Shown: positions 6,486 through 37,289 of the stretch, piece by piece
Numbering within the stretch: the first letter of the stretch is position 1
Layout of the letters: the number at the start of each line of letters is the position of its first letter
Origin: a virus
Taxonomy: Duplodnaviria > Heunggongvirae > Uroviricota > Caudoviricetes
DNA: 37,289 bases
Direction: 5' to 3' (one strand)
Virus record (IMG/VR): IMGVR_UViG_3300041955_000143
Location: 1 to 37,289 of that record
Notes under the pieces: model-generated
The model's input: only the letters and a program-made list of their open reading frames with translations
What the model was told of the DNA's origin: nothing
Databases searched by the model: none
Translations under genes and position numbers: made by a program

Positions 6486-8828
6486 TCATATCCCTCCTAG
6501 AGCGAGAACGGCGAGCGTACTAGCGGCTTGAACGTATTTAGATTCACGCGCGAACGCGAGATTCGCGCTGGTGATCTGTGTTGCTGCGAAACTAAGCGAA
6601 CTCACCGCCTCGTTTTGTAGCACATGGCTTGAATCGGTCGTTAGAAGGTAGGCTGTCGTCGACCCGGTAACCGTCGTCGAGTTGATGGCAACGCTCGTTG
6701 CTACACCGCATGATTGCTGTCCAAGCACGGGCCCAGCGGCGACATAGAGGCAATCGCCTGGAGTTCCGTTCGTTACTGTTGTCGCTCCGCCACCGACTAC
6801 GATTGCCGTCGCGGGAGAGCCGATAACGGAAAGTACGCCGGAGCCGTCAATGGCGATGCTTGTCCCATCCGGCTTGCTGCATCCAACCAAGCCCGTTCCG
6901 GTCACGGCCGTCGCGGTGACGCAGTTCAATGTCGTGCTCGAGAACGCCAACGTCACGCCAAGAGTAATGCCTTCTGCATTTGCGGGCGATCCTGTTGGAT
7001 TGCCGACGAGAGAACTCGCCGCAACTTGCTGGAACTTCGCGTATGTAACCGCATTCGCCGCGATAGTTGCCGCCGCGCTGCCCGGGCCGCTCGCCGTAAC
7101 ATCGCTCGTCAGTGCGGTTATGCCCGCCGCAGCGAACGCACCAGTCCCTAATGCGCCGCCTGCTCCGCTCGATGTGATCGCGCTGCCGACGCCGATTGTC
7201 GTATTCGCCAGCGCGGTCGTGCCGGTCACTGCCAGCGCATTTGAGCCAATGGTGGCCCCACCGATCGCGAGAGACGTCGCTGTCGCTACGCCCAATGCTG
7301 GAGTGACGAGCGATGCCCCGGTCGTCGCTACGAGATTGCCAGAGCCGTTTAACGTCGCGGCACTGATAGCAGTGCCGTTGCCCTGTAGGATGCCTGTGAT
7401 GGTGGTCTGTATCGAGATTGCTGGTGTTGTTTGGTAAGTTGCGACAACCCCAGCGAAGCCATTGACCGAGGTCACGCTGACGCTAGTGACGGTGCCAGTG
7501 GAGAGGGAAGCGGTCCCCCAAGTGGCATAGACGGTGTTCTGCGCTAAGATCGGATTGGCGAATGTCACCACGCCGGTCGAGAGGTTAACTGTCCAAGCAG
7601 ACGGTGCGGGCTGTGCGACACCATCCTCGAAGATTTCGAGGACGGCTTGGCTCGCGGGCAGACTAGAGAGTGTGAGTTGGCAATTCGTTATAGGAGAACA
7701 TGCCGCACCAGGAGTGTAATTGACGTTGGCGACAAACGTCTGGTTATGCCAAGTGCTGCCGCCTCCACCGCCGCCGCTGCCGCAGGCACTACCAGAATCC
7801 GCGACACCACCAGCTATGCCATTAGGTCCAGCGGCGACTTGGATACAGTCGCCGGGAACAAACGAGCCGACCTGAAACGCTAAATTACTGGCGACGGGAG
7901 GCAATCCAATGAGATTGCCGTTATAGGTTAGCGTAGCGCCACCGACAATGGTTAGCCCGGTAATGATCGAAACGGAGGTGAATGCTGCACTGTTCGGCGT
8001 ACCGCCAACGCCGATGGGTGGCGGTGTGAGAAAATTCTGTGTGGCGAAAGTACCGAGGCCGAGATTGCTGCGGGCCGTGGCAAAGCTCGTCAGGTCGCTC
8101 AAATTATTCGTTGTTACAAGCGCATTGGTGATGCCGTAACCAGCAACCGTGGTCGGTGTCGAGCCAATCTGTGCGAAAGTGTAATCCCCGCTTTGCGCGA
8201 CGACGGCCCCGGCACGTCCGAATACAGAGGTGACGAGCCCAGCCCCGACCAGCGCGCTCTGAACGAATTGGTCTGTCGCAAGTCTTGTGCTATTATCCCC
8301 ATTACTTTGCGTCGTCCCGGTCACCCCGTTCGGCAATGCGGTGGACATGGAAAGCGCACCAGCAGATCCGGAGACCAGTACGCTATTATTCGCCCCGACA
8401 ACCTCGACAAGCGCACCGCCATTGTCCGCAAGTAACCTGTTGGCCGCGCCGCCAGTGATCGGCGTGCTGTTGACAATAAGGGTTCCGCTACCGCCGCCAG
8501 GCTGCCATGAGGTCAGCCCTGCGCCGTCCGTCGTCAAGACGAAACCATTGGTGCCCGCGTTTACCGGCAGGGTAAAAGTCCATGAACCCGTCGCGGCCGG
8601 CGCTTGCACGGCAACAACGCCAAGCGACCCCGACCCGACAAGCCCGAGCGACCCTGTGACACCAGAGCTTCCAAGCGTCGGATTTGCGGTAGCGATTGGC
8701 GGGGCTTGGGAAATCCCTGGGTTGCCGCAAAGCTGGCCAGGCTGGAATTGGCCAGTACATTCGGCAAATGCGCTTGAAGTAATAAGCACGAAAAAAATCG
8801 CGAAGAATATAGTAGTGCGCAACCTCAT
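6486..8828 (-). CDS. Long tail-fibre-like protein with signal peptide (780 aa)
   Basis: MRLRTTIFFAIFFVLITSSAFA|EC; fibre motifs VTSVFGRAGAVVAQSGDY, NNLSDL, NAVTYAKFQQVAA, GTVTSV; Gly/Ser/Thr-rich. Confidence 0.7.
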   Translation of the reverse strand: MRLRTTIFFAIFFVLITSSAFAECTGQFQPGQLCGNPGISQAPPIATANPTLGSSGVTGSLGLVGSGSLGVVAVQAPAATGSWTFTLPVNAGTNGFVLTTDGAGLTSWQPGGGSGTLIVNSTPITGGAANRLLADNGGALVEVVGANNSVLVSGSAGALSMSTALPNGVTGTTQSNGDNSTRLATDQFVQSALVGAGLVTSVFGRAGAVVAQSGDYTFAQIGSTPTTVAGYGITNALVTTNNLSDLTSFATARSNLGLGTFATQNFLTPPPIGVGGTPNSAAFTSVSIITGLTIVGGATLTYNGNLIGLPPVASNLAFQVGSFVPGDCIQVAAGPNGIAGGVADSGSACGSGGGGGGSTWHNQTFVANVNYTPGAACSPITNCQLTLSSLPASQAVLEIFEDGVAQPAPSAWTVNLSTGVVTFANPILAQNTVYATWGTASLSTGTVTSVSVTSVNGFAGVVATYQTTPAISIQTTITGILQGNGTAISAATLNGSGNLVATTGASLVTPALGVATATSLAIGGATIGSNALAVTGTTALANTTIGVGSAITSSGAGGALGTGAFAAAGITALTSDVTASGPGSAAATIAANAVTYAKFQQVAASSLVGNPTGSPANAEGITLGVTLAFSSTTLNCVTATAVTGTGLVGCSKPDGTSIAIDGSGVLSVIGSPATAIVVGGGATTVTNGTPGDCLYVAAGPVLGQQSCGVATSVAINSTTVTGSTTAYLLTTDSSHVLQNEAVSSLSFAATQITSANLAFARESKYVQAASTLAVLALGGI

Positions 8829-9325
8829 GGCTGTGATTGTCCAGAGCTAAAGAACTCCCCAAAGGCTACCTTGGCTGCTTGGCAATATGCCTGATGCGCC
8901 TCTTCCGGTGTGTCGAAGGCTCCAAGATTAACGGTCTTCTTATTTATTGTAACTCTAGCCACGAATCTTCGATTCTTCGGAGATACACCCTTGAAACCAG
9001 CGGAATTTGTCGAATAAACTTTGCAGTTTTGTATGTTTTGTGCCCTTGTAGCGATTCTTAGATTTTGGATACTATTCCTCTCGGGATTGCGATCTTTGTG
9101 ATCGATTCTAGCGGGCCAAGTTCCATGCACGTAGAACCAAATTACCTGGTGCACGCCGTATCGCTTACCGTCTATGCAGACACGCAGATAACCATCGCCC
9201 TTAGCGCTTCCAGCTAGGTCGCCTGGCTTGACACCGTTAGGGCGCCAGACCTTCCAGCGCAGAATGCCTAAAAGCGGATCGCAATCAAGCAGTTCTAATA
9301 TCCGTTCCCTAGTTGGCTTTAGCAT
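8825..9325 (-). CDS. HNH homing endonuclease with C-terminal AP2 domain
   Basis: Start at ATG 9325; RERILELLDCDP..G, GYLRVCIDGKRY, IDHKDRNPERNSIQNLR, FKGVS..RFVARV...LGAFDTPEEAHQAY. Confidence 0.9.
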   Translation of the reverse strand: MLKPTRERILELLDCDPLLGILRWKVWRPNGVKPGDLAGSAKGDGYLRVCIDGKRYGVHQVIWFYVHGTWPARIDHKDRNPERNSIQNLRIATRAQNIQNCKVYSTNSAGFKGVSPKNRRFVARVTINKKTVNLGAFDTPEEAHQAYCQAAKVAFGEFFSSGQSQP

Positions 9326-9819
9326 TCGTACCACTGGCTGCCCCCGAGAATCGGCGTGATGACTGGCGCTATTCTAACCCATCCGAAGGCGTTCGTAATT
9401 TGCACCTCGGAGAGCCCGTCGCAAAGCTGGCCACTGCTGAAGCTGATCGTGATATTGTTCGTCGCCGCGTCTCCCTTTATGTCCTTGAATAAGATCGAGG
9501 CCGCAGAAGCCATCGTCGCCGCTAGGGGGAGAACCGCGTAGCTCGGAGAGCCAAGAGTCTTGCCGAAGAGGATGATGCTATCGGTGGTCTCTACTTGATA
9601 GGGACTGCCAGAGGTGGCGCCCGCCGTAAGCGTCTCGGTATTCAATGAACGAAACGAGCCGAAAAAATTGGCGAGGACCGCCGTCGTGATCCCGTAGCTG
9701 TTTCCCTGCGCAGCATTCCCCGGTGACACAATGTACATGAGTTCGCTGCCAGTCAGCGGCCCATTCAGGGTCATAAAGCTGGTAAGTCGGCCGTCAGTGG
9801 GCGTGACTGAGTTAGCCAT
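9319..9819 (-). CDS. Virion structural protein, no signal peptide (166 aa)
   Basis: N-terminal LTSF..L.GPLTGSELMYIV module; TDSII...LPLAA...ILFKDIKGDAATNNITI...CDG module common in phage collar and fibre proteins. Confidence 0.65.
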   Translation of the reverse strand: MANSVTPTDGRLTSFMTLNGPLTGSELMYIVSPGNAAQGNSYGITTAVLANFFGSFRSLNTETLTAGATSGSPYQVETTDSIILFGKTLGSPSYAVLPLAATMASAASILFKDIKGDAATNNITISFSSGQLCDGLSEVQITNAFGWVRIAPVITPILGGSQWYEC

Positions 9820-11790: not shown

Positions 11791-12260
11791 GGCGTCAAAG
11801 GAATCCCCGTATCCGTCGTCAGAATAACCCCGCTCTCCGTCGTCAGCACCGTACCCCCACCAGTCACCCCGCCATCCGACGTCAGATATTGCATCAGCAA
11901 TGGAATCTCCCCCGTCTGGTCGCACAGTATCAGTTCCGGCCCCGCACCCCACGGCGGTTCGTTCGGACCACCCCACTGCGCGATGAGAACTGTCTGCTCC
12001 TCGTAGGCGAAGTTCGGCACGCGCACGTTGAAAACAGGCGGGGGGTCGGGGGGCAGGAGAATCGTCCGGTTCAATTCAAAGGGAACATCCCAGCACTTCT
12101 CGCAACGTAAAGAATTAAATTGGAAGACGTGTTCTCCGGCCCATTCCTGCTGCTGCCGCAGTTCTCTGAGAGGATACCAAATACCACACAAATCACAGAC
12201 GCCAGCAGCCTCAGGCGAAGTCGCGTCAACGCGAGTGTGGTAGCTCATTCGTCGACTCAT
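11787..12260 (-). CDS. Conserved phage morphogenesis-region Zn-finger protein (157 aa)
   Basis: Start re-called at ATG 12260 (ATGA overlap); GVCDLCG...EWAG...RCEKCWD...PPDPPPV..VRVP. Confidence 0.7.
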   Translation of the reverse strand: MSRRMSYHTRVDATSPEAAGVCDLCGIWYPLRELRQQQEWAGEHVFQFNSLRCEKCWDVPFELNRTILLPPDPPPVFNVRVPNFAYEEQTVLIAQWGGPNEPPWGAGPELILCDQTGEIPLLMQYLTSDGGVTGGGTVLTTESGVILTTDTGIPLTP

Positions 12261-13285
12261 GCGACCATCCTTGTTTGTAATTCTAAATAGCGGAACGACA
12301 ATCCAGTTTTGGATTTGCGTCCGTCTCGGCACAGTTCAGAGATCCTTCCGCCACTGAGGCCACACGCTCTACCGGCCGCCGCCGTGTTAGGATAAATCTC
12401 GCCTGTATTTATACAGATTACGGGAAAGCTCCTTAATTTGGATAGTTTTTCTTTCCACCCAGCCAACGTTTTAGCCTTCTTAGCTTTGGCTTTTTCAAAA
12501 AAACGAAGCCGTTCCTCTCCCGTTATGGCACCGTAGGCGAAGCACAGACCGCTCTTGTGCGTCTTGCCCGTCTTGCACAGGTATTGAACTATCCCGCGAA
12601 CAAGGCCCTTATCTCGTTCGGCCGCTAGAGCACTCTGATAAATGATACCATCGTTTAAGCAGGTAACTGATCGACCATTCGTTTTGGCTAGTTTTTTAAC
12701 TCTTGAATCCTCAGACGAAACTTTTCGTTCTTGAACGCTCGACAACAGAGATAGTCGTTCCTCGTCTGACATTGGTTCGGTGAAGAAGATAAACGACAGA
12801 CCGTTCCGCATAACACCGCCCCTGTTGCATAGCTGCGCCAAATTGTGCCTCTCAACGCCATAGGCTTTCGCAGCAGCCGCTGCACTTGGGTAGACGATGC
12901 CATCATTCAAACAGATAACCGGCTTGCTCCTTCTTTGCGCACTGGCCGCCTGAAACTCTGTCTGCTTTTCCTTAGAGGTAAAGATCAGGGCACCAGCGGC
13001 AATGTTATATTCTGGCTTTAGCAGGGCGATCAGTCGCTCCTCCTCCTTATACATTTTCTCCACCGTAGGCAGAGTCGTTAAAACCGTCCACTCAAACGCA
13101 TCTCGGCCATATTTGCGGATTGCATTGTAGAAACGCGGGCAATCGCGTCCCTTGCGGTTACAATCCTTAAAGTGTCGGTCGCGACGCGCATTTATGCCGA
13201 GCTTTGTCGCGCCAATGTACCGCTCCCCGTTGACGATGTTCGTCGCCATGTAAACGATAAACTCTATAGTTGCATTTTTTTTCAT
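12257..13285 (-). CDS. GIY-YIG homing endonuclease with three NUMOD1-like repeats (342 aa)
   Basis: Start re-called at ATG 13285 (TAATG overlap); IVYMATNIVNGERYIGAT; repeats KPVICLNDGIVYPS, RSVTCLNDGIIYQS, FPVICINTGEIYPN. Confidence 0.9.
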   Translation of the reverse strand: MKKNATIEFIVYMATNIVNGERYIGATKLGINARRDRHFKDCNRKGRDCPRFYNAIRKYGRDAFEWTVLTTLPTVEKMYKEEERLIALLKPEYNIAAGALIFTSKEKQTEFQAASAQRRSKPVICLNDGIVYPSAAAAAKAYGVERHNLAQLCNRGGVMRNGLSFIFFTEPMSDEERLSLLSSVQERKVSSEDSRVKKLAKTNGRSVTCLNDGIIYQSALAAERDKGLVRGIVQYLCKTGKTHKSGLCFAYGAITGEERLRFFEKAKAKKAKTLAGWKEKLSKLRSFPVICINTGEIYPNTAAAGRACGLSGGRISELCRDGRKSKTGLSFRYLELQTRMVA

Positions 13286-13965
13286 TACGACGCTCGGTAG
13301 AATCCGGTTAAGCCTGGGAAAATATAGAGCGGGACGGCTTCTCCTTGGGACGCGGCGCGCTCGTATGCTTCTTTTGCATCGACCTTGCGCTTGTCCTCGA
13401 GTTGAGGGGCATAGATGCGAGACAGCCGATACGCGAGTTCGGCTACGTAGGCATCCAACCACCAATACTGCAACTGCGCATTGCCGCCTTGCGGGAGCTT
13501 GGCGTCCTGCATTTGATTGTAGGTATAATAAAACATGGTGTATGTCGCCGTACCATCAGGAACTGGCCATAGCGTCAGAGTTTGCGGGATGGCCCGGTCC
13601 AACCAAAAAGTTGTGGGAAAACCTTGGGTTGTAGGATTTCCCAAACTCGCGAAATCCGTGCGACTGAAAGCGAAGATCAATCTGTTGTAAGAACCGTTGC
13701 TGATGTAGACGTCGAGCACGGTGATCGCATTATCGGGAACCGTGTAGGTCGCCGTCCCTTGGACAAGCGGCACGGAATTTAGCTGGACGGTCCAAAACGT
13801 GATGCCGTCAGCGCCCCAAGCAGATTGGAGATAATTGGATTCGTTAAACGCATCGTCCATGTGTTGCGCGAGAATCTCGGTCCGCTTAACGCCACAGCGC
13901 GCAAACGCACTGATCGCCAACTGGCCGATCGGCGGGTTGAAAGAAAATTGGTTAGACGTTGCCAC
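13285..13965 (-). CDS. Head-tail adaptor or connector protein (226 aa)
   Basis: MATSNQFSFN...AFARCG...WGADGITFWTV...QGTATYT...QGFPTTFWLDR...LTLWPVPD...LAYRLS matches podovirus-type adaptor family; position in operon. Confidence 0.7.
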   Translation of the reverse strand: MATSNQFSFNPPIGQLAISAFARCGVKRTEILAQHMDDAFNESNYLQSAWGADGITFWTVQLNSVPLVQGTATYTVPDNAITVLDVYISNGSYNRLIFAFSRTDFASLGNPTTQGFPTTFWLDRAIPQTLTLWPVPDGTATYTMFYYTYNQMQDAKLPQGGNAQLQYWWLDAYVAELAYRLSRIYAPQLEDKRKVDAKEAYERAASQGEAVPLYIFPGLTGFYRAS

Positions 13966-24065: not shown

Positions 24066-24443
24066 TCAGTCGGACGGCTCGCCGGATTCGCTTAGTTCTC
24101 CTGGAGTTACGTGCTTTACGGTGCTCGCGGTGCTCAAAGGCACGCGATTTGCGCCGACGCCGCCGCCCCTCTTCCGGCCCGGAATACTCATTCCATGCCT
24201 ATGATGCATACTGTGACCCTTGACCTCGTGGTGCGGTTCCTTGCCGTCGACCTTGCCGCCGCGAGCCCGCTTGTCGGCCCGATGCTTCGGCTTGTGGCCT
24301 TCGCCATCCACATGCCCGCCGCGCCGGAGGTGCTCGCCCTCGGTCTTCTCTTCGGCTTCCTTGGCCGCATTGGTTTCGCCGCCAGCTTCCCAGACGGGCT
24401 TGGTCGAGCCACCGCGGGCCCGTTTGTGTCTTGCTCGGCTCAT
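24066..24443 (-). CDS. Basic His/Arg/Gly-rich protein with repeated RxRGG motifs (125 aa)
   Basis: AGAGGA SD; KRARGGS, WEAGGE, LRRGGHV, KRARGGKV, RKRGGGV. Confidence 0.7.
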   Translation of the reverse strand: MSRARHKRARGGSTKPVWEAGGETNAAKEAEEKTEGEHLRRGGHVDGEGHKPKHRADKRARGGKVDGKEPHHEVKGHSMHHRHGMSIPGRKRGGGVGANRVPLSTASTVKHVTPGELSESGEPSD

Positions 24444-25867: not shown

Positions 25868-26869
25868 CTAGTCCTTCTCCGGGGCTGAAAGGGCCTCAAT
25901 TCCAGTGCCGTCCGACCACGAATCGATGATGTATTTGATTGTAGCCCAACCAACTCGGAAAGGGTTGCCGTCACGGTCGAAAGTACGAAGTTCGCGACCG
26001 TCTACCACCTCCAAGCGGATTGCGCAGTTCTCGTCCACCTTGATGAGGCTATCGCGGCTCTCATCAAACGATGTGAAATGTCCAAAGTATTGGACCTCAG
26101 CGAGCAACCGCGCGACGCGCGTCTCCGCCAAAGTGGCAAATCGCCCTAAGTGGAGAGACTTTTTGTCCACAGAGATTGTTGCTCTGTAAGCATTTCCGTG
26201 TCGCGAAACGCCAGGGAAGCCGGTCGTGCTCTTCGGATGGAGCCTCTTGTTGTGGCCGTTCTGACTCCTATTGGCTTCGCGTAGATTGCACCAACGATTG
26301 TCGTCGCGGACGTTGTTGATGTGGTCTATCTCGTCGACGGGCCACTCTCCCGTCATGTAGAGCCACGCCAAATGGTGTTCTAGATACTTGTTGTAGTCGA
26401 GACCGATTTGGCGATAGCCAAACCCATGAAGTCCACCGGCCCGTTCGCCGGGGGTCGACATGGACGACCTGATGCGCCAAGTGAAAAAGCCACTTTCTGG
26501 TTCGTAGTGTAGCAATTCCTTTAGCCGCTCTTGAGTAAGCGACTGCTTTGCAACGGCTTCCTTATCCCTTTCGTTGAGAGCCAAATTGGCAAGCCGATTA
26601 TTGGTCTTGATGCCGTCCAAGTATTTCACGCGGCTTGGCCACTCACCGTGAGTGTACGCCCAAGCCAGCGCACCAGCGTTGTAGTTGACCCCATCGACTC
26701 CAAGCATGACGTATCCGAGTTCCGTTATCCTTCCGGCTCCTACTTTGCCGTATTTTCTCGCCTTCGTTTGGCGCGTCTCAACCTTCCTCGTAAAGATTCC
26801 GGTCTCAGCGTCGTAGTCGAAAAGTTCCTTCAGTCGTTCTTGCGTCGGGGTCGGCTGCTTCCGTGTCAT
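25868..26869 (-). CDS. Homing endonuclease with tandem HNH-type modules (first degenerate) and AP2 domain
   Basis: ATG 26869 after GGAGGA SD; TQERLKELFDYDAETG and TQERLKELLHYEPESG; only second module keeps IDHINNVRDDNRWCNL; FPGVS..YRATI...LGRF. Confidence 0.9.
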   Translation of the reverse strand: MTRKQPTPTQERLKELFDYDAETGIFTRKVETRQTKARKYGKVGAGRITELGYVMLGVDGVNYNAGALAWAYTHGEWPSRVKYLDGIKTNNRLANLALNERDKEAVAKQSLTQERLKELLHYEPESGFFTWRIRSSMSTPGERAGGLHGFGYRQIGLDYNKYLEHHLAWLYMTGEWPVDEIDHINNVRDDNRWCNLREANRSQNGHNKRLHPKSTTGFPGVSRHGNAYRATISVDKKSLHLGRFATLAETRVARLLAEVQYFGHFTSFDESRDSLIKVDENCAIRLEVVDGRELRTFDRDGNPFRVGWATIKYIIDSWSDGTGIEALSAPEKD

Positions 26870-26872
26870 CGC

Positions 26873-26925
26873 GTCCTCCATTGTTTAAGGAGGACATTTG
26901 TAACACGTTACCACTCCATTCGCAA
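26873..26925 (-). promoter_or_regulatory. RBS-sequestering hairpin plus overlapping promoter and palindrome for the endonuclease gene
   Basis: GTCCTCC-TTAAACAAT-GGAGGAC (26873-26895); TTGCGA-N17-TACAAA (26925-26897); palindrome GTAAC-GT-GTTAC (26900-26911). Confidence 0.65.
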
Positions 26926-30486: not shown

Positions 30487-31452
30487 TCAGAACGGCAACG
30501 CCATCTGTGCCTCACCGTCGCCTCTGGCCTTCCGAATATCCTTCCATAGTTGACTTGTCTTTATTCCGCCACGCCGCGAAAATTCTGCTCTCGTCTTAGG
30601 ATTAAAGATCCCCCTGCCCTCAGCGATCTGTTTTTTAAGCGCATCCCGCATTTTCTGTGTAAACTTCGGCTTCTTTACCAAGCCTCGATAATTCAGAGGC
30701 GCTTTGAACGCGAGGTCAGTTGGCCATCCTCTTTTGAGGCGCATACGCGCAATCTTCCGTTCGATATGGTATTTTTTACACGCAGTAAGAAACGGCATAG
30801 TCACACCCTCAACGGTAACATCAAAAGCACTCGCTGGATGAGTCGCCCAGTACGCTCTCATCTTGGCCTTAGTCTCATCGTCGTGTTTCATGCCTTTTTT
30901 GAAGTGAGGTTGCCACCCATCGGCCAATAATTTTTTCTTCCCCGCGCTTATATTAGCCTTGTGTTCTTCGGAAAATGGACCTCGTTTTTTTCCTTTAAGT
31001 TTACCTTTGAGAGCCGCGCTAATGCGAGCGCATGTTTCTGGAGATCGCTTTAGACCAAATGACGGATGATTTTCTCCCTGATTGCGCTCTTTGCTTTTTA
31101 TTGAGATCTTTCTCCTTGTTTCCTCTGGAAGCGTTCGCCCAGTTTGATTTTTAATAAATTGATTTCGTAGCCAACCATACAACTTGTTGCCCTTCCTCCC
31201 ATTGCCAACTCCGTTACCGCCTCCAGTCATTGCCAGAGCGGCCCAGATCAATTTCCCATTCCCAGGATATATTTTGACGAGCAGTTGATGCGCGACATAA
31301 TGCTCTTCTGGGGTCAGACGAACGAGATTTTTCAACTCGTTTGAACCACCCAAGCATCGCGGTTTGACGTGATGGCGTTCAGTGCGGACTGATAACGCGC
31401 CACGCGACCTAGCTCTTCGCATCAAGCGATTGTAAATTCTTCGATAATTCAT
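30487..31452 (-). CDS. HNH homing endonuclease (T4 MobD/MobE-like N-terminus) with NUMOD3-like repeats (321 aa)
   Basis: Start re-called at ATG 31452: MNYRRIYNRL...TERHHVKPRCLGGSNELKNLVRLTPEEHYVAHQLL; repeats LPEETRRKIS, RSPETCARIS, FSEEHKANIS, HDDETKAKMR. Confidence 0.9.
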   Translation of the reverse strand: MNYRRIYNRLMRRARSRGALSVRTERHHVKPRCLGGSNELKNLVRLTPEEHYVAHQLLVKIYPGNGKLIWAALAMTGGGNGVGNGRKGNKLYGWLRNQFIKNQTGRTLPEETRRKISIKSKERNQGENHPSFGLKRSPETCARISAALKGKLKGKKRGPFSEEHKANISAGKKKLLADGWQPHFKKGMKHDDETKAKMRAYWATHPASAFDVTVEGVTMPFLTACKKYHIERKIARMRLKRGWPTDLAFKAPLNYRGLVKKPKFTQKMRDALKKQIAEGRGIFNPKTRAEFSRRGGIKTSQLWKDIRKARGDGEAQMALPF

Positions 31453-34400
31453 TGCCACCCCGAAAAACACCGTGCCTTTTAAGAATATCCTGCACTCGCT
31501 CTTGACGGCTACGAACATGCTCAAATGGCTTCTTCACGTTTCCGTGATCGAGCCAATCCCTAAATTCGCCCAAAGTTACCCCAGTAATTTTGCCTATTCG
31601 ATCCTTGCCTCTGCCGTCCGAAAAAGACGCTTCATAGGCACGTCTCGCCTGCCGCTCATTCGCGAAGAACAGGAGGCATTTTCCTTCGTCGTATTTTCCG
31701 CTGTCTGCATCAATTTGATCGACGATGAAGACATGAGGCGCTAGGCGATGAGGACCGACGAAGCAATCTAGGGGATCTTTGTCTTTTGCCGTCACGCCAC
31801 GGATATAGCCGTAATGGGCATTTTTTGGCATTTTGACGGACCACGGCTTTCCGTTCTTATCGATGCCAGACCGCGTTGAACCGGCCGCGTTCTCGATCAT
31901 AATCTCCATGCCTCTGGCGTGGATTCTGTCCTTTTTATAATTCCCTGCATGCTTCTGTGCCTCAGTCGGATTCGGGTCGATATTCTTCGGATCGACTCGG
32001 CCACCGTGCGCCCGTTGCATGCGCTCGCGCTGTGAGACAGTCGGTTGACCTCTGATTACGTTACTAAGGTCGCTGATCCAATTATCTCGCTGGCCGCTTA
32101 CATTCAGCATGAAATTCTGTTCGAGCTTATCGAGCGGCGTTTCGTTCCTTGCGTCCTCGACGTTTGTCGATGGGCGCCATTGCTCGATCGGCTGACTTTC
32201 GGGGACCGCACCGCCATCGGCCCGATGCGATATTAACGCTTCAATCGCATCGTCCTTCGTCTTTCCTGTCGAAAGCATCGCTCCGCTTTTATCGAAGACT
32301 CCCCAACGATTAAGCGGATAGGCGTATTCGACTGTGAGACCGCGTTGCAATACGCGACCGCCGCTAGCGCGTTCAATTACGTCGTCGTCTGACTGTGGAG
32401 CATTTTTCCTTCTTGTGGTGCCAACTGGATCGTTCTCGCCGATCGTGAGTAGCGGCCTTTGGTTGCGCCAGTCGGCGAGTTCTTGATGCTCTGGTTCGCC
32501 GTTGCCGCATGGAATTGCACCGCCAACGGCGCGAGTTACTCGACCTCCATGCTTGAATAGCGGGAAGCCCTGAGTGAGAGCGGCTTTACGAAGTTCTGGT
32601 GTAATTTTGATGCTGTGAATGGGCGTTTCTTTGCCTCTCGCTTTCACAATTGCAATGCTCGCAGATTCTCTATCAGGGAAAGTAGAGTTTCCCCATCCAT
32701 GTGCGTAGTCTTCCGTAACCGGATCATAAATGCGCCATTGATTTGGGCCAGAATGAACAGCATACCATTTATCTTCGTTGTGAGCACGTAGGCCGCTCTG
32801 CTCCACCTTCGCCCCGTATTTCTTGACCAACTTGTTGGCGGCAGCAGGCAAGATTTGATCGTAGAATCCGCGCATACCTTCGCCGCCGACTTTGAGGTCG
32901 AGACCGGAGTATTCGGCGGCATGCTTTGACGCCATTGCCAGCACGTCTGTCTTATCTCGTACCGACTTCGGCAGAGAATTTTGATAGGCGACCGCTTCCT
33001 CTTTTGAGGTAAAGCGCGGCGACCAATTACCGGAGACTCGATTTTTAACACCCCAATTATTTTGCTGGCCAGCAATGTCCTTGACGATCTTTTCGGCCAT
33101 TTCCTTGCCAACATGATCGGCAAGTTCTTTCTCTGGCACGTTTTCTGCCACGCGAGTCCGCTCGTCGCGACCTTTAAGTTTTGCGTCGAGCGTGTAATAC
33201 GGGCCGTCAGTGCCTTCGCTGCGAATAGCGCGTAGTTCGTTAATCTGCTTGCTGAGGTCGTATCGGTCAGCGTTCGTTGCGCCGGTGTCCCAACTTATGC
33301 GGTCGTAACCCTCGTCGGCCGCTTTTCGGATCATGCGCTTTAGGGCCAACTCCGGCCATGTGTTTTTGAAAGGAGCGTCAGGAACGCCGAACTTAGTTCC
33401 TTCAAATTCTCCCACCGCGCGCTCATAAGCCATGCGCGCTATAGCAAAACGGCCAATGGCTGGGCGATCTTGCGGCTCAAACCCAGATAGCCATTCTTGG
33501 TAGCGTCGCGGATTATTTAAATCATTAAGACCAGCAGATCGGTCAATGCTCTGCACGAGGTCGCGCGCTAAATCATTGTTGCTTACGTGTGGTCTGACTG
33601 CTTGGAACAGGTCGGATTCGGCCTTAGAAAGCACTTGACCAGCATCATCACGTCTTTGTTTGAGTGTCGCCAAATCCTCGCCAGTTTGGTATCCTTCCTT
33701 TCTGCCCTTTTGGTGCCAATCCGATTGGACCTCGCTAATGTGTAGAGTCCTATCTCCGCCTATATTCCGATCATCGAATCTGACGTGGGCAAGGACATTG
33801 GGTTCGTCCCAGTGAGAGGAGCGAAAGGATTCTTTCCCGAGAGCACCGCGAAGTGCCGCGAGCTTGGTTGCGAGGCGATCACGTTCCATCGCCAAACGAG
33901 CCAATTCAGCGTCACGAGCTGGCACTGCGGTCGGATTTTCGCGCAAGTAATCGCCAATTTTATTGTTCGTGTAGCTGAGCCACGCCCCAGTGCTCTTCAT
34001 TTCCTCCGTTGCCGGTCGATCCCGTGTCGGCAACGTCAGCAGCAATTCCCGATAGTTCTCGCCGCCGGGGAGAGTGTATTGAGCAAATTTTGGCGTTTGG
34101 CCGTAACCAGTGCTTGCGGCTTCCCATTGTCTGTTTAGATTATCCAATCTTGCTTGATTTTCAGGATCGCGAGCAAGTCCAGGATTTTCTGGCCAATGCG
34201 ATAACTGGCGGATTTCGCTGTCTATCCGAGTAATTTCCTGTTTGTCGGGCGCACCTTTCTCGACCTCCTGCACATCGACCTTATTGCCGCGAATGTAATC
34301 GGCGAGGTCTTGCTTTGAGACATTTCCCTTCTGATCCGCGAGCCAATCGTTGACTCCGAGCCAATCTAGTTCTTCCGGTTTGACGCCTGGAGCGTTCCTC

Positions 34401-36856
34401 AGCATTCCGAGCCATTGATTTGCTGGCGCGGAGTTTGTCTTGGCGTTGGTCACGGCATTTTCGACGGCGGAATAGAAGCGGGGGGCTATTTGCTCTTGGG
34501 GTGACGCTGGCGCTTCTGGCTCTTCCTTTATGGGCCGCCATCCATCTTCCGTTAAGGCTTCAATCTTTGATGGCGGAACTACTTTGTTTGAATAGATGTC
34601 TCCCGTGGATTCCTTCCTGAATGGATGCGTATCGGCGGGGATGCGCAATAGAACAGGGCGTCCTTCTTCCGGCGCAAACTGCCAAGCGTTACTTGCGGTA
34701 GGCGTAAAATAATTTCGTCTGTCCGTCGAACCATCGGGCCAAACATCTTGATCCGTGAAATCTCTAGGCTTGTGCAGCTTGAGCCCCTGTTCGGCAATGT
34801 CGGCGGCCCGTTCCTCGTTTGTGGCGTGATAGACGTATCCAGGCGTAGTTTCGACGGGTCCGTTAACGGTTTTCAGCTTCCCGCCAGCCATGCCAAGCGC
34901 GCCTTCCTCAGCCATCGGCAATCCGCCCGTCATCGCGATCCCGGCAAGATCGGCCGCGCGGTTTGCTACCGTCGCGTTGGCCATGTTGAGGCGCGCTTGA
35001 TCTTCCTCGCTCCAAGTCGGCTTGCCTTGTGCGTCGGGCGGACCAGATGGCGCAATATCAAACTTACGAGCGACAACATCGCCGGGAGCGGCAACGGCAC
35101 TATAGATGCCTTCGGCTGCGCCTTTGGCGACAACGCCGACCGCACTTGGAATCTTGCTGACGGTCGCCGTAGCCGCTGGAAGAGATTCTAGCGTTATTGG
35201 CGCTTCGCTCGCGAGCGTAGGAGCGAAAGGATCGTGATCGATTTCTTGTAAATCGTATGGCCGATTTGCCTCGTCAGTCGGCGTTGGTTGCGGATGCACC
35301 GTGAGTTGCGGGACGCCGTGCGGTGCTGGAAATTCGTTGGCGCCAACGTCATCTATGTCGCCGCCATCGGCGTAGCGCATAACTCTGCCGCCGCTGGCCA
35401 TGCCCTGTTCCCAATTGGTCGGAACCTTAAAGTGAGCCGCTCCCCCAGCGACCAGACCAGCAAGGCCGTATTTTTTGATGATGTTTATCAGGCGGTCATT
35501 AAAGACGACATAGTTGCTCGTAGGCTTCGGTGCGGACGTTATTTTCGACTTCAAATCAGAAATGAAATCCTGTTGCTTGGCTATTTGCGATGCGATTTCA
35601 TCTTGGCTGAAAGCCGCGCGCACTGATGGGGCATCGGCATTCTTCTGCATTGCATTCAACGTCGATTCTTCAACGGCAATACGTTTCAGCAGCGCATCAC
35701 GTTCTGCCAGCGATGCTTGCGTGGGGCGTGATCCTTGGTCTAGGTATTTGATGCCAGGGATGCCAGCTTCGCGGAGAACTTCCGTCGCCTCTTTCGGTGA
35801 TTCTTGATAGCCTATTCCGCCGCGAGTTTTCTCCATTTTCATATCGCCGTAGAAACTGGCGCCGGACTTTGATCCCTCGCCGCGATAAGCACCCATCAAG
35901 CGGCTTTTTACATAACCGTCGTCTGCGCTCTTGATATAATCGGCATAAATATCGGGGCCTTGCTGAAACGCATCGTAGGCTTTTTTAAGTAATTGACGTA
36001 TTCCAATATCTTCTGCCGCGTCACTACTGACTTGTGATCCATTGAAATATCGCCGCGCATTTTCGTACAATTGTTTGTTTGTCGCCCTTGGCACCGACGT
36101 ATCGTAACCGAGAGATTGCAACGCCTCCTGCACCTTCGGGCTCTGTTCACTCAGCGGCTTATCCCAATCAAGAAAATGCTCGGGATCAGCGTTGATTGCG
36201 ACTTCGTACATTTTGCCAGTGCCGGGAGGTGTAACTCCTGATTTCAGCGCCTCCAAATGGGCTATCGCGTCCTCGCCGTATGTGCGTCCTGCCGAGGTCG
36301 TTCGTTGTTCTGGCGAGCGAGCCATGGCAATCGCTTTGTCGAAGTCGCCATCGGCCTGCGTGAGTAGTGTATTTGCATAAGCCTTCGGTCCTTTGGCTTG
36401 TTCAAGCGCATCTCGATACGCCTGCGCCGTCTGCGGATTCTCCGCAAAATACAATCCATGCCCGTAAGCCTGTGCGCCCTCGCCTGTTCCGATCTTCGAT
36501 AGATCGAACTGCTCAAAATCATGCGGCGAGCCATGAAATGCGCGGATGCCCATGCCTGCCGCGTCACGTTCTGCCGGGGCCGCGAACGAGGAACCAGTTG
36601 CCAATGCAGCAAGGTCAGCAGACCGCGCAACCGCCTCGTCGCTCAACGGATCGACGTTGCCTTGGGCAACGTCGCCAGGAAGTGTGACGGCACTCCATGT
36701 CTGCTTTGCGAGTTTCGCTGGCCACGTCTGTGCCAGTTTGTCTACTGCGGATTGTGGCAGTCCTTGAGACGTCGCGCCCGCAAGCGGATCGGCAAACGGA
36801 TCGGCCTCGACGGGAAGGAGGTCGTAATCAAGCGGCTGATCGGGCACGGGGGACAA
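31409..36856 (-). CDS. Large polyvalent protein, probable injected cargo: ART-PolyVal-type domain, second ART-fold domain, large unknown domain, InPase-type inorganic pyrophosphatase domain
   Basis: AFHGSPHDFEQFD...GHGLYF...GIPGIKY...NYVVF; YVYHATN...GL...NYFT...VLLRIP; SEVQSDWHQ...WPELALKR; PTEAQKHAGNYKK...IENAAGSTRSG...YGYI...DKDPLDCFVG...DQ...DEGK. Confidence 0.85.
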   Translation of the reverse strand: MSPVPDQPLDYDLLPVEADPFADPLAGATSQGLPQSAVDKLAQTWPAKLAKQTWSAVTLPGDVAQGNVDPLSDEAVARSADLAALATGSSFAAPAERDAAGMGIRAFHGSPHDFEQFDLSKIGTGEGAQAYGHGLYFAENPQTAQAYRDALEQAKGPKAYANTLLTQADGDFDKAIAMARSPEQRTTSAGRTYGEDAIAHLEALKSGVTPPGTGKMYEVAINADPEHFLDWDKPLSEQSPKVQEALQSLGYDTSVPRATNKQLYENARRYFNGSQVSSDAAEDIGIRQLLKKAYDAFQQGPDIYADYIKSADDGYVKSRLMGAYRGEGSKSGASFYGDMKMEKTRGGIGYQESPKEATEVLREAGIPGIKYLDQGSRPTQASLAERDALLKRIAVEESTLNAMQKNADAPSVRAAFSQDEIASQIAKQQDFISDLKSKITSAPKPTSNYVVFNDRLINIIKKYGLAGLVAGGAAHFKVPTNWEQGMASGGRVMRYADGGDIDDVGANEFPAPHGVPQLTVHPQPTPTDEANRPYDLQEIDHDPFAPTLASEAPITLESLPAATATVSKIPSAVGVVAKGAAEGIYSAVAAPGDVVARKFDIAPSGPPDAQGKPTWSEEDQARLNMANATVANRAADLAGIAMTGGLPMAEEGALGMAGGKLKTVNGPVETTPGYVYHATNEERAADIAEQGLKLHKPRDFTDQDVWPDGSTDRRNYFTPTASNAWQFAPEEGRPVLLRIPADTHPFRKESTGDIYSNKVVPPSKIEALTEDGWRPIKEEPEAPASPQEQIAPRFYSAVENAVTNAKTNSAPANQWLGMLRNAPGVKPEELDWLGVNDWLADQKGNVSKQDLADYIRGNKVDVQEVEKGAPDKQEITRIDSEIRQLSHWPENPGLARDPENQARLDNLNRQWEAASTGYGQTPKFAQYTLPGGENYRELLLTLPTRDRPATEEMKSTGAWLSYTNNKIGDYLRENPTAVPARDAELARLAMERDRLATKLAALRGALGKESFRSSHWDEPNVLAHVRFDDRNIGGDRTLHISEVQSDWHQKGRKEGYQTGEDLATLKQRRDDAGQVLSKAESDLFQAVRPHVSNNDLARDLVQSIDRSAGLNDLNNPRRYQEWLSGFEPQDRPAIGRFAIARMAYERAVGEFEGTKFGVPDAPFKNTWPELALKRMIRKAADEGYDRISWDTGATNADRYDLSKQINELRAIRSEGTDGPYYTLDAKLKGRDERTRVAENVPEKELADHVGKEMAEKIVKDIAGQQNNWGVKNRVSGNWSPRFTSKEEAVAYQNSLPKSVRDKTDVLAMASKHAAEYSGLDLKVGGEGMRGFYDQILPAAANKLVKKYGAKVEQSGLRAHNEDKWYAVHSGPNQWRIYDPVTEDYAHGWGNSTFPDRESASIAIVKARGKETPIHSIKITPELRKAALTQGFPLFKHGGRVTRAVGGAIPCGNGEPEHQELADWRNQRPLLTIGENDPVGTTRRKNAPQSDDDVIERASGGRVLQRGLTVEYAYPLNRWGVFDKSGAMLSTGKTKDDAIEALISHRADGGAVPESQPIEQWRPSTNVEDARNETPLDKLEQNFMLNVSGQRDNWISDLSNVIRGQPTVSQRERMQRAHGGRVDPKNIDPNPTEAQKHAGNYKKDRIHARGMEIMIENAAGSTRSGIDKNGKPWSVKMPKNAHYGYIRGVTAKDKDPLDCFVGPHRLAPHVFIVDQIDADSGKYDEGKCLLFFANERQARRAYEASFSDGRGKDRIGKITGVTLGEFRDWLDHGNVKKPFEHVRSRQERVQDILKRHGVFRGGNELSKNLQSLDAKS

Positions 36857-37289
36857 CCTTTAAGAACTTCCCTTGGCGCTTCGGGTCCCTAATATACCAT
36901 TCCCCGTCAGGCGCTTGGCGAGCTCCAATTTGTTGGGGATGAAAGCGATGTGGCGCGACGGGACTCCGCGAATCATCGACATTGCCGCCATGCGATTTCG
37001 CTTCTGGCTTCTGCTCTACTGCGCCGCCTGTATTCTGCTGCTGTGCTGGCCCTGGAATTTCTTGTTGTTGTGGTTGGGCACCTACGGCACTTGGAAGCTG
37101 AGGACGAACCGTGATTCGCGGAATAGCCTTCGATCCAGCGACAGCAGAGGCTCTCCTAGCAACATCGGCAAGGGCGTCACCGACACGTTTATTCCGAGAT
37201 GCTATCTGTAGCCCACGCATCAATTCGGTGGGATCATCAGAAGCCAACAGTGCCGCGACTCGTCCAGCCGTATTGCGATCAACATATCC
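36828..37289 (-). CDS. C-terminal part of a large protein, probable internal virion or ejection protein; 5' end outside window
   Basis: Frame open to window edge (GYVDRNTAGRVAALLASDDP...); KSHGGNV motif and terminal IGARQAPDGEWYIRDP..GKFLKV motif. Confidence 0.7.
   Translation of the reverse strand, partial: GYVDRNTAGRVAALLASDDPTELMRGLQIASRNKRVGDALADVARRASAVAGSKAIPRITVRPQLPSAVGAQPQQQEIPGPAQQQNTGGAVEQKPEAKSHGGNVDDSRSPVAPHRFHPQQIGARQAPDGEWYIRDPKRQGKFLKVVPRARSAA

Follow-up and report, generated by a model that had tools for sequence, protein, structure and literature searches.

A recurring A-x-G-G-x-V heptad at the module boundaries of a phage polyvalent protein, and its candidate role as a processing signal

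The IMG/VR virus record IMGVR_UViG_3300041955_000143 (Caudoviricetes) was analysed over positions 1–37,289, hereafter the window. The complete phage genome is 101,289 bp long and has direct terminal repeats, and the window covers its first 37 kb. The minus strand of the window encodes an 1815-amino-acid (aa) protein, P0001, in which seven short glycine-containing heptads recur, and these heptads are the subject of this analysis. Pfam InPase (PF18823) matched aa 1632–1769 with an E value of 8e-43, ART-PolyVal matched aa 98–163 below threshold (29.5 bits, cut-off 31.2), and a PHROG search connected the C-terminal part of the protein to DarB-like, minor head, and virion proteins. On the strength of these InPase, weak ART-PolyVal, and virion-type matches, P0001 is a predicted packaged protein of the "polyvalent" type described by Iyer et al. 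2017 (PMC5512222). It combines at least two unrelated effector domains in one very long polypeptide, and its gene lies inside the virion/packaging module, between the head genes on one side and a 781-aa phrog_5880 protein and an S74/SLT ejection protein on the other. A large protein database held 491 homologues. The gene and its domains are arranged as follows, all on the minus strand.

31409–36856, minus strand: gene for the polyvalent (packaged/ejected cargo) protein P0001, 1815 aa, TTG start, from the open reading frame (ORF) list
35432–36565, minus strand: conserved block of ART unit 1, aa 98–475, from the sub-threshold Pfam ART-PolyVal match and the homologue coverage profile
34526–34852, minus strand: second ART-like unit, aa 669–777, phrog_3147, without a Pfam match
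32555–34531, minus strand: central domain of ~650 aa, aa 776–1434, without a Pfam family
32219–32344, minus strand: small module Y, aa 1505–1546, a predicted three-strand plus helix fold of 42 residues with a predicted local distance difference test (pLDDT) score of ~80
32021–32200, minus strand: small module X, aa 1553–1612, W-R-P-S-T-N-V-E-D-A-R ... N-W-I-S-D, helical, low confidence
31550–31963, minus strand: InPase domain, aa 1632–1769, Pfam PF18823, folded in the AlphaFold2 (AF2) model

The central domain was the commonest shared element, found in ~110 polyvalent homologues and ending in I-T-P-x-L-R ... G-F-P-L-F. The proteins that share it are multidomain and carry LPD, ART, InPase, and other domains. 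The start of module X, W-R-P-S-T-N-V-E-D-A-R, may resemble the R-x-S-x-N-V-E-D-R-R string that YpfJ-type putative metallopeptidases carry at the N-terminus.

The initial annotation had described seven [MYFR]-[AK]-x-G-G-x-[VI] heptads in the 1815-aa ORF. All seven were present in the translation where it had placed them, with FKHGGRV starting at 32537 and the recorded 32538 one base short.

35381–35401, minus strand: motif 1, MASGGRV, aa 486–492, after ART unit 1 and a hydrophobic G/A/L stretch
35354–35374, minus strand: motif 2, YADGGDI, aa 495–501
32537–32557, minus strand: motif 3, FKHGGRV, aa 1434–1440, directly after the G-F-P-L-F end of the central domain
32513–32533, minus strand: motif 4, RAVGGAI, aa 1442–1448
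32351–32371, minus strand: motif 5, RASGGRV, aa 1496–1502, immediately upstream of module Y
32204–32224, minus strand: motif 6, RADGGAV, aa 1545–1551, immediately upstream of module X
31994–32014, minus strand: motif 7, RAHGGRV, aa 1615–1621, 10 residues upstream of the Pfam InPase match

The number of copies was far above chance. Shuffled versions of P0001 contained 0.028 heptads on average and never more than 2 in 20,000 shuffles, and 7 of the 15 GG dipeptides in the protein fit the heptad pattern where 0.03 were expected. The copies also lay in linkers and outside recognizable domains, as had been proposed from the sequence. In a BLAST-coverage profile built from 119 homologues, every one of the seven motifs fell at a drop in coverage: after the ART unit 1 block (aa 98–475), just after G-F-P-L-F, within the poorly conserved region 1450–1610, and 10 residues before InPase. 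The AF2 model of aa 1425–1815 had a mean pLDDT of 66.7, with values <50 at 1425–1504 and 1548–1570. These low-scoring stretches contain or abut four motifs, while the intervening modules and InPase were folded; motif 7 itself scored ~70.

Enrichment extended to the homologues. Among 120 sequences retrieved via the central domain, the pattern [FYRKMWH]-[AKRS]-x-G-G-x-[VI] occurred 95 times against 14.3 ± 3.7 expected (~7-fold). Position 0 was R, F, Y, or K, position +1 was Ala in 80% of copies (76/95), and position +6 was V or I. The consensus over copies is [R/K/F/Y/M]-A-x-G-G-x-[V/I], with five of the seven positions constrained across proteins that are <30% identical and across unrelated protein families.

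Individual motif variants travelled with individual modules. The order of the small modules is Y then X in P0001 and X then Y in the homologues P0008 and P0010, and each module keeps its own upstream variant through this permutation (RASGGRV with Y, RADGG with X, RAHGGRV with InPase). InPase was preceded by R-A-H-G-G-R-V-x-P-x-N-I in ~17 homologues, and homologues with an N-terminal InPase (P0070 and P0062) had no motif copy upstream of it. We considered whether the motif is simply part of the InPase domain and rejected this, as InPase occurs without it in PB1-like LMA2 gp17, BcepF1 gp124, Bacteroides BF1-TP2 gp68, and Rhizobium RHph_TM29 gp083; motif-less lineages retain only the domain start P-T-E-A-Q-K-x-A-G-N-Y. 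A motif copy likewise follows the CxxC mini-domain of other homologues. Since modules swap order together with their own motif variants, the motif behaves as a boundary element of a shuffled cassette.

Across the genome the motif was confined to genes for proteins of the virion interior. By a crude gene call, 15 of 16 strict matches fell in six genes of the 24–56 kb virion block, which encode a 125-aa basic protein, the polyvalent protein, the 781-aa phrog_5880 protein, a 1311-aa S74/SLT ejection protein, a 345-aa protein, and a Pro/Gly-rich protein just downstream of the portal region. The fibre/spike genes of the same phage encode 131 GG dipeptides and no motif. The KSHGGNV of the protein upstream of P0001 and the RARGG repeats of the 125-aa protein, both reported in the initial annotation, were confirmed.

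36828–37289, minus strand: upstream 781-aa virion gene (phrog_5880), 3′ part, with KSHGGNV at 36978–36998
24066–24443, minus strand: 125-aa basic His-rich protein with four motif-like sites
24402–24422, minus strand: RARGGST in the 125-aa protein
24309–24329, minus strand: LRRGGHV in the 125-aa protein
24249–24269, minus strand: RARGGKV in the 125-aa protein
24156–24176, minus strand: RKRGGGV in the 125-aa protein

An equivalent multi-protein pattern was found in the IMG/VR loci L031, L039, L049, L060, L072, and L074/75. Some small proteins of these related loci consist almost entirely of motif chains, for example the 137-aa and 251-aa proteins in L060. The suggestion that the motif is a non-random signal common to several packaged virion proteins, delimiting separable modules of a polyvalent cargo protein, is thus borne out by the enrichment, the genome distribution, and the module evidence.

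Motif-rich homologues lacked one feature that most of the others possessed. Two thirds of the homologues carry an HExxH-signature segment after the central domain. HExxH was present in 0 of 24 homologues with at least two motifs and in 63 of the 96 others (Fisher p = 7e-10). The segment after G-F-P-L-F could not be named as a peptidase family because it has no Pfam match, and we describe it only by its signature. Motif-rich proteins occupied at least five separate places on a central-domain tree, some nested among HExxH-bearing ones; the tree (MAFFT and FastTree) is rough and carries no support values. Zincin-mediated processing of polyvalent proteins was predicted by Iyer et al. 2017 (PMC5512222), and from that prediction together with the HExxH exclusivity the motif seems to take the place of a built-in peptidase, with lineage effects possibly contributing to the pattern. 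P0001 and the zincin (MPTase) proteins are of the same class, with ART-PolyVal, InPase, and large unassigned domains, and share the idea of processing into effectors. Unlike them, P0001 contains no HExxH, its genome has no match to MPTase-PolyVal (PF18818), and its module boundaries carry A-x-G-G-x-V.

Motifs of the same type flank a conserved C-terminal block in siphophage tape measures, where they take the form [FY]-A-x-G-G-x-V. The case with a mapped cut is the T5 tape measure pb2, which reads F-V-P-R(1127)-A-E-G-G-M-M followed by G-E-H-G-T-E-V-V. Mass spectrometry placed the cut that matures pb2 to pb2* and pb2C after R1127 (Linares et al. 2023, PMC10038345). This is the bond between motif position 0 and Ala, within P-R/A-E-G-G (the slash marks a cut here and below), and only two [RKFY]-A-x-G-G cores exist in the 1219-residue pb2, one of which is the mapped site. 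The sequence P-R-A-x-G-G is kept in T5 and four divergent Demerecviridae tape measures that are 37–68% identical in that region. The M at +6 in T5 kept its site from being ranked by a position-specific scoring matrix trained on V/I-containing copies, and as the training was circular on the positions of the search pattern, the five-residue core was used instead.

Outside the motif, pb2 and P0001 are not homologous. Both are read as ejected proteins of the virion interior. They share the R-A-x-G-G core (5/7 copies in P0001), a hydrophobic stretch before the site (motif 1 follows G-L-A-G-L-V-A-G-G-A-A), and an enzymatic C-terminal piece set apart from the rest. They differ in layout: in pb2 a single site precedes the G-E-H-G-T-E-V-V unit, and P0001 has seven sites and no G-E unit in cis. 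No G-E-x-G-x-E-V-V or G-E-F-V-F unit was present within ~10–15 residues downstream of the P0001 copies, and in this phage such a unit occurs only in the 345-aa protein. The hydrophobic G/A/L/V stretch before the first motif pair, G-L-A-G-L-V-A-G-G-A-A-H-F (aa 466–485; 35402–35460), is kept in P0008 and parallels those before the T5 pb2 cut and the lambda gpH glycine-rich region.

Hendrix and Casjens are said to have described in 1974 the conversion of the lambda tape measure gpH to gpH* and gpHC. According to a 2025 study, lambda gpH loses ~14 kDa from its glycine-rich C-terminal region, with neither the site nor the catalyst identified (PMC12617516). The protein contains F-A-T-G-G-F-T, then G-I-V-H-R-G-E-F-V-F, then G-Y-A-T-G-G-Y-V, and its glycine-rich region has three A-x-G-G sites: S/AIGGAV (706/707), F/ATGGFT (733/734), and Y/ATGGYV (778/779). 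These are candidate cut sites, of which 706/707 and 733/734 fit the reported fragment sizes. Like P0001 as we read it, gpH is an ejected protein of the tail lumen, and it is cut in a glycine-rich region that holds three A-x-G-G-x-V/T sites; unlike P0001, it is a tape measure and not a multi-enzyme cargo protein, and its link to the motif is a prediction. The block F-[AS]-x-G-G ... G-E-F-V-F ... G-Y-A-x-G-G-x-V-G recurred in tape measures of T1-like, Klebsiella, Pseudomonas, and Arthrobacter phages, with 1044 matching phage records. A 40-residue portion, P-x-G-x-V-H-x-G-E-F-V-F-T-K-E ... L-Y-x-L-M-x-G-Y-A-x-G-G, was up to 80% identical among lambda (gpH, L083), T1-like, Klebsiella, and Arthrobacter phages (L094–L097). 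Because the remainder of each tape measure is unrelated, this portion looks like a mobile, strongly constrained module.

The tape-measure arrangement has a counterpart within the phage studied here. The 345-aa protein (minus strand, genome 45336–46373, L001:8837–9874, outside the window) has a DUF6496-like N-terminus and a C-terminal domain whose profile found 4,416 representatives at E ≤ 1e-3, in proteins of 150–1400 aa and always at the C-terminus. The family comprises at least 4,416 clusters at 50% identity and is unannotated. Some members are themselves polyvalent, with N-terminal InPase plus CHAP, SLT, or ART domains. In the top 150 representatives the motif occurred 114 times against 5.8 ± 2.3 expected, at three fixed places and with Ala at +1 in 94% of copies (106/113), and it precedes two V-P-x-G-x-Y-V-x-P / G-G-E-Y-V-I-P-P units. 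The domain has invariant R, D, E, and H residues (R25, D27, E123, and H142) and two G-E-[YF]-V-[IV]-P hairpin units. Its AF2 model (pLDDT 81.7) shows two hairpin-plus-helix repeats with the internal motif in a disordered loop; a fold search with this model returned no PDB match and only the family itself in AFDB. The gpH block F-A-T-G-G ... G-E-F-V-F ... G-Y-A-T-G-G-Y-V resembles the motif plus G-E-unit layout of the 345-aa protein. An hhalign comparison of the family with the C-terminal end of gpH gave an E value of 0.0011 and a probability of only 20%, and we treat homology of the two sets of units, as judged from these profiles, as a lead only.

Because the motif matches the type that flanks the tape-measure C-terminal block, and because T5 pb2 is cut at such a site, we favour a reading in which the heptads are a proteolytic processing signal for packaged and ejected proteins, cut between position 0 and Ala. 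We consider this about evenly balanced between right and wrong. Under this reading the heptads are copies of a conserved short linear motif that, in one large set of tailed phages, shows where independently shuffled modules of virion-packaged, host-injected proteins meet, and cleavage of the polyvalent protein would take place during or after packaging. A scissile bond between position 0 and Ala would yield products starting A-x-G-G-x-V, and cutting the 198-kDa P0001 at all seven sites would give fragments of 52.2, 103.6, 5.9, 5.3, 8.0, and 22.4 kDa and two peptides of 8–9 residues. The predicted fragments would correspond to ART unit 1 (52.2 kDa), ART unit 2 with the central domain (103.6 kDa), three small modules (5.3–8.0 kDa), and InPase (22.4 kDa). 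The catalyst could be a host protease, an unrecognized phage protease, or the conserved G-E-[FY]-V unit acting in cis or in trans. The initial annotation had proposed that a shared signal releases separate effectors by cleavage after GG. Processing through a shared signal remains reasonable, with the T5 pb2 precedent P-R/A-E-G-G and a core kept in divergent Demerecviridae; the cut after GG does not, since the T5 bond lies before Ala, three residues upstream of GG.

Several observations weigh against processing at the motif. Direct evidence of cleavage comes only from one site in one unrelated protein, T5 pb2, where the +5/+6 residues are M-M, unlike the x-V/I rule, and where the V/I-trained matrix passes over the site. 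The residue at P1 is mixed (R, K, F, Y, M), a variety not usually seen with a single protease, and tandem copies 8–9 residues apart would give tiny peptides. Several homologues terminate exactly at the motif (...FSSGGRV, ...YAFGGTV, and ...YAYGGFVAA at the stop codon), where a cut would remove only 6–8 residues; a pure inter-domain cut site does not account for these copies. The enrichment counts come from related sequences and hence are not independent events. A Pfam search of the complete genome for S78, S77, S49, ClpP, Prok-JAB, C48, C5, C39, and MPTase-PolyVal returned no match, though a novel protease would escape it. T4 gp21 and the phiKZ/SPN3US prohead proteases resemble the proposed system in that one signal is common to many head-internal, later ejected proteins, but they cut at x-x-E/ sites with a phage-encoded protease of the S77 or gp175 type, and none was found in this genome.

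The main rival is that the motif stays uncut and serves docking or assembly. A-x-G-G-x-V peptides would then act as short ligands that hold cargo and ejection proteins on a shared receptor inside the capsid, portal, or tail channel, or on DNA. Multiple copies would raise avidity, and the T5 cut at one copy would be a lineage-specific addition. Capsid-targeting peptides are an established principle, as in the T4 capsid-targeting sequence, and the limitation of the motif to genes for virion-interior proteins suits docking. This rival also deals better with copies at extreme C-termini, where cutting achieves little, and with tandem copies, including the small basic motif-chain proteins (in this phage the 125-aa and post-portal proteins, in L060 those of 137 and 251 aa). 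It names no identified receptor, however, and accounts less well for the HExxH exclusivity, for the N-terminal InPase without a motif, and for a mapped T5 cut that falls exactly at the motif. On this balance we regard docking as a serious but distinctly less probable explanation than processing before Ala.

A wider version of the processing idea would make A-x-G-G-x-V a general code for Caudoviricetes proteins that travel through the tail, with the C-terminal domain of the 345-aa family as the enzyme, acting in cis in tape measures and in trans on polyvalent proteins. It would span siphophage tape measures and the cargo and ejection proteins of podophage-like viruses and, if true, would explain the T5 pb2 cut and the cut of lambda gpH to gpH* (predicted at S706/A707 or F733/A734). 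A complex prediction of the family C-terminal domain with P0001 aa 1425–1510 returned a score of 0.00 and no verdict either way. The domain is a speculative candidate for the catalyst, and the general code as a whole is improbable.

The motif might instead be a passive flexible-linker idiom without a specific reader, a lineage-specific hinge that spreads with modules by recombination. The motifs do lie in predicted disordered segments, Gly-Gly favours flexibility, and module shuffling could copy linkers along. Against this, five of seven positions are constrained in the divergent and unrelated proteins described above, including tape measures of Gram-positive and Gram-negative phages, a hinge would not usually keep an aromatic/basic residue, Ala, and Val in register, and the GG-rich fibre proteins of the same phage are motif-free. 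We consider a passive hinge quite unlikely.

Least likely of all, at only a slim chance, is a cysteine protease of the Ulp/adenain/pS273R type that cuts after Gly-Gly to free the effector modules, as the initial annotation had envisaged: processing at GG/X is well established in adenovirus, African swine fever virus (ASFV), and ubiquitin-like systems, where virion precursors are cut at short Gly-Gly sites, and the Gly-Gly pair is (by definition) invariant in all copies, but the analogy breaks down over the protease, the P4 rule, and the place of the mapped T5 bond. The complete genome had no C48, C5, C39, or JAB match and no CE-clan protease by these Pfam searches; the initial annotation had likewise seen no Ulp/adenain-like protease in the window. 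For PF02902 and PF00770 there was no match at E ≤ 1, although a very divergent protease could escape; for PF03412 (C39) there was likewise none in the complete genome, and the motifs are internal or C-terminal, unlike a double-glycine leader. Adenain needs M/I/L at P4, where the copies here have Ala (76/95 and 106/113). Conservation extends out to +6 (V/I) and to position 0, in keeping with a site whose centre lies upstream, and the nearest precedent, T5, cuts before Ala, three residues upstream of GG. Products of a cut after GG would also often start with Arg. Under the bacterial N-end rule an N-terminal Arg is destabilizing and an N-terminal Ala stabilizing. Arg would lead 4 of 7 products if the cut fell after GG, a cut before Ala would expose the stabilizing residue, and because the rule marks Arg-starting products for degradation, the cut before Ala is favoured.

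Other features of the locus were recorded alongside the heptads. Both ART units of P0001 begin with a second short linear motif, L-x-P-V-x-[HA]-D-P-F.

36794–36820, minus strand: LLPVEADPF, aa 13–21, at the head of ART unit 1
35225–35251, minus strand: LQEIDHDPF, aa 536–544, at the head of ART unit 2

This second motif was at or near the C-termini of homologues P0061, P0068, P0093, P0060, P0019, P0091, and P0097, lay 4–5 residues downstream of the GG motif in some homologues, and within this genome occurred only in the polyvalent protein. The 238-aa neighbour of P0001 (28785–29501, minus strand) contains a C-x2-C ... C ... C mini-domain that was HiPIP-like in an Atlas structure search (template modelling score by matched model 0.89 over 62 residues), and the search with this HExxE/HiPIP-like protein gave no protease lead. 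A similar C-x2-C mini-domain occurs inside the polyvalent homologues P0003, P0009, P0012, P0015, P0031, and P0068, with the GG motif after it. Outside the window and just downstream of the portal region, the Pro/Gly/Ala-rich protein of ~300 aa (genome 55031–55957) has 3–4 GG motifs (YAKGGAV, RKRGGRV, KKRGGRV, RARGGRL) and no family match, and may be an internal core or scaffold-like protein. Most of the ~40 neighbouring ORFs searched with PHROGs and Pfam had no family and none was a protease; over the whole genome, most head genes were without a PHROG or Pfam match. Many HNH/homing endonuclease genes lie in the structural module (8825–9334, 12257–13465, 25868–26881, 30487–31524, and genome 44314–45060). 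None of 50,697 phage records matched the window in a megablast search, and tblastn returned only domain-level matches.

Processing of packaged phage proteins is already known as a concept. The motif appears to be new, as do its role at module boundaries, its distribution, and the connection with tape-measure cleavage: no glycine or linker motif is mentioned in the polyvalent-protein paper (PMC5512222), and no description of it was found in the literature searched, of which coverage was partial. For the deployment of multi-enzyme polyvalent proteins after injection, the sole prior proposal is self-processing by built-in zinc peptidases, and the motif gives the polyvalent proteins that lack a peptidase concrete candidate cut sites. 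It would also allow interior and ejected virion proteins to be predicted from sequence. Should it prove to be a docking peptide, it would still be a new signal that targets proteins to the virion interior, and one that could serve to load phage particles with foreign cargo. The motif connects proteins of uncultured phages to classic questions about the cleavage of lambda gpH and T5 pb2, and with this tie to T5 and lambda, work in those phages could test a rule for thousands of metagenomic phages.

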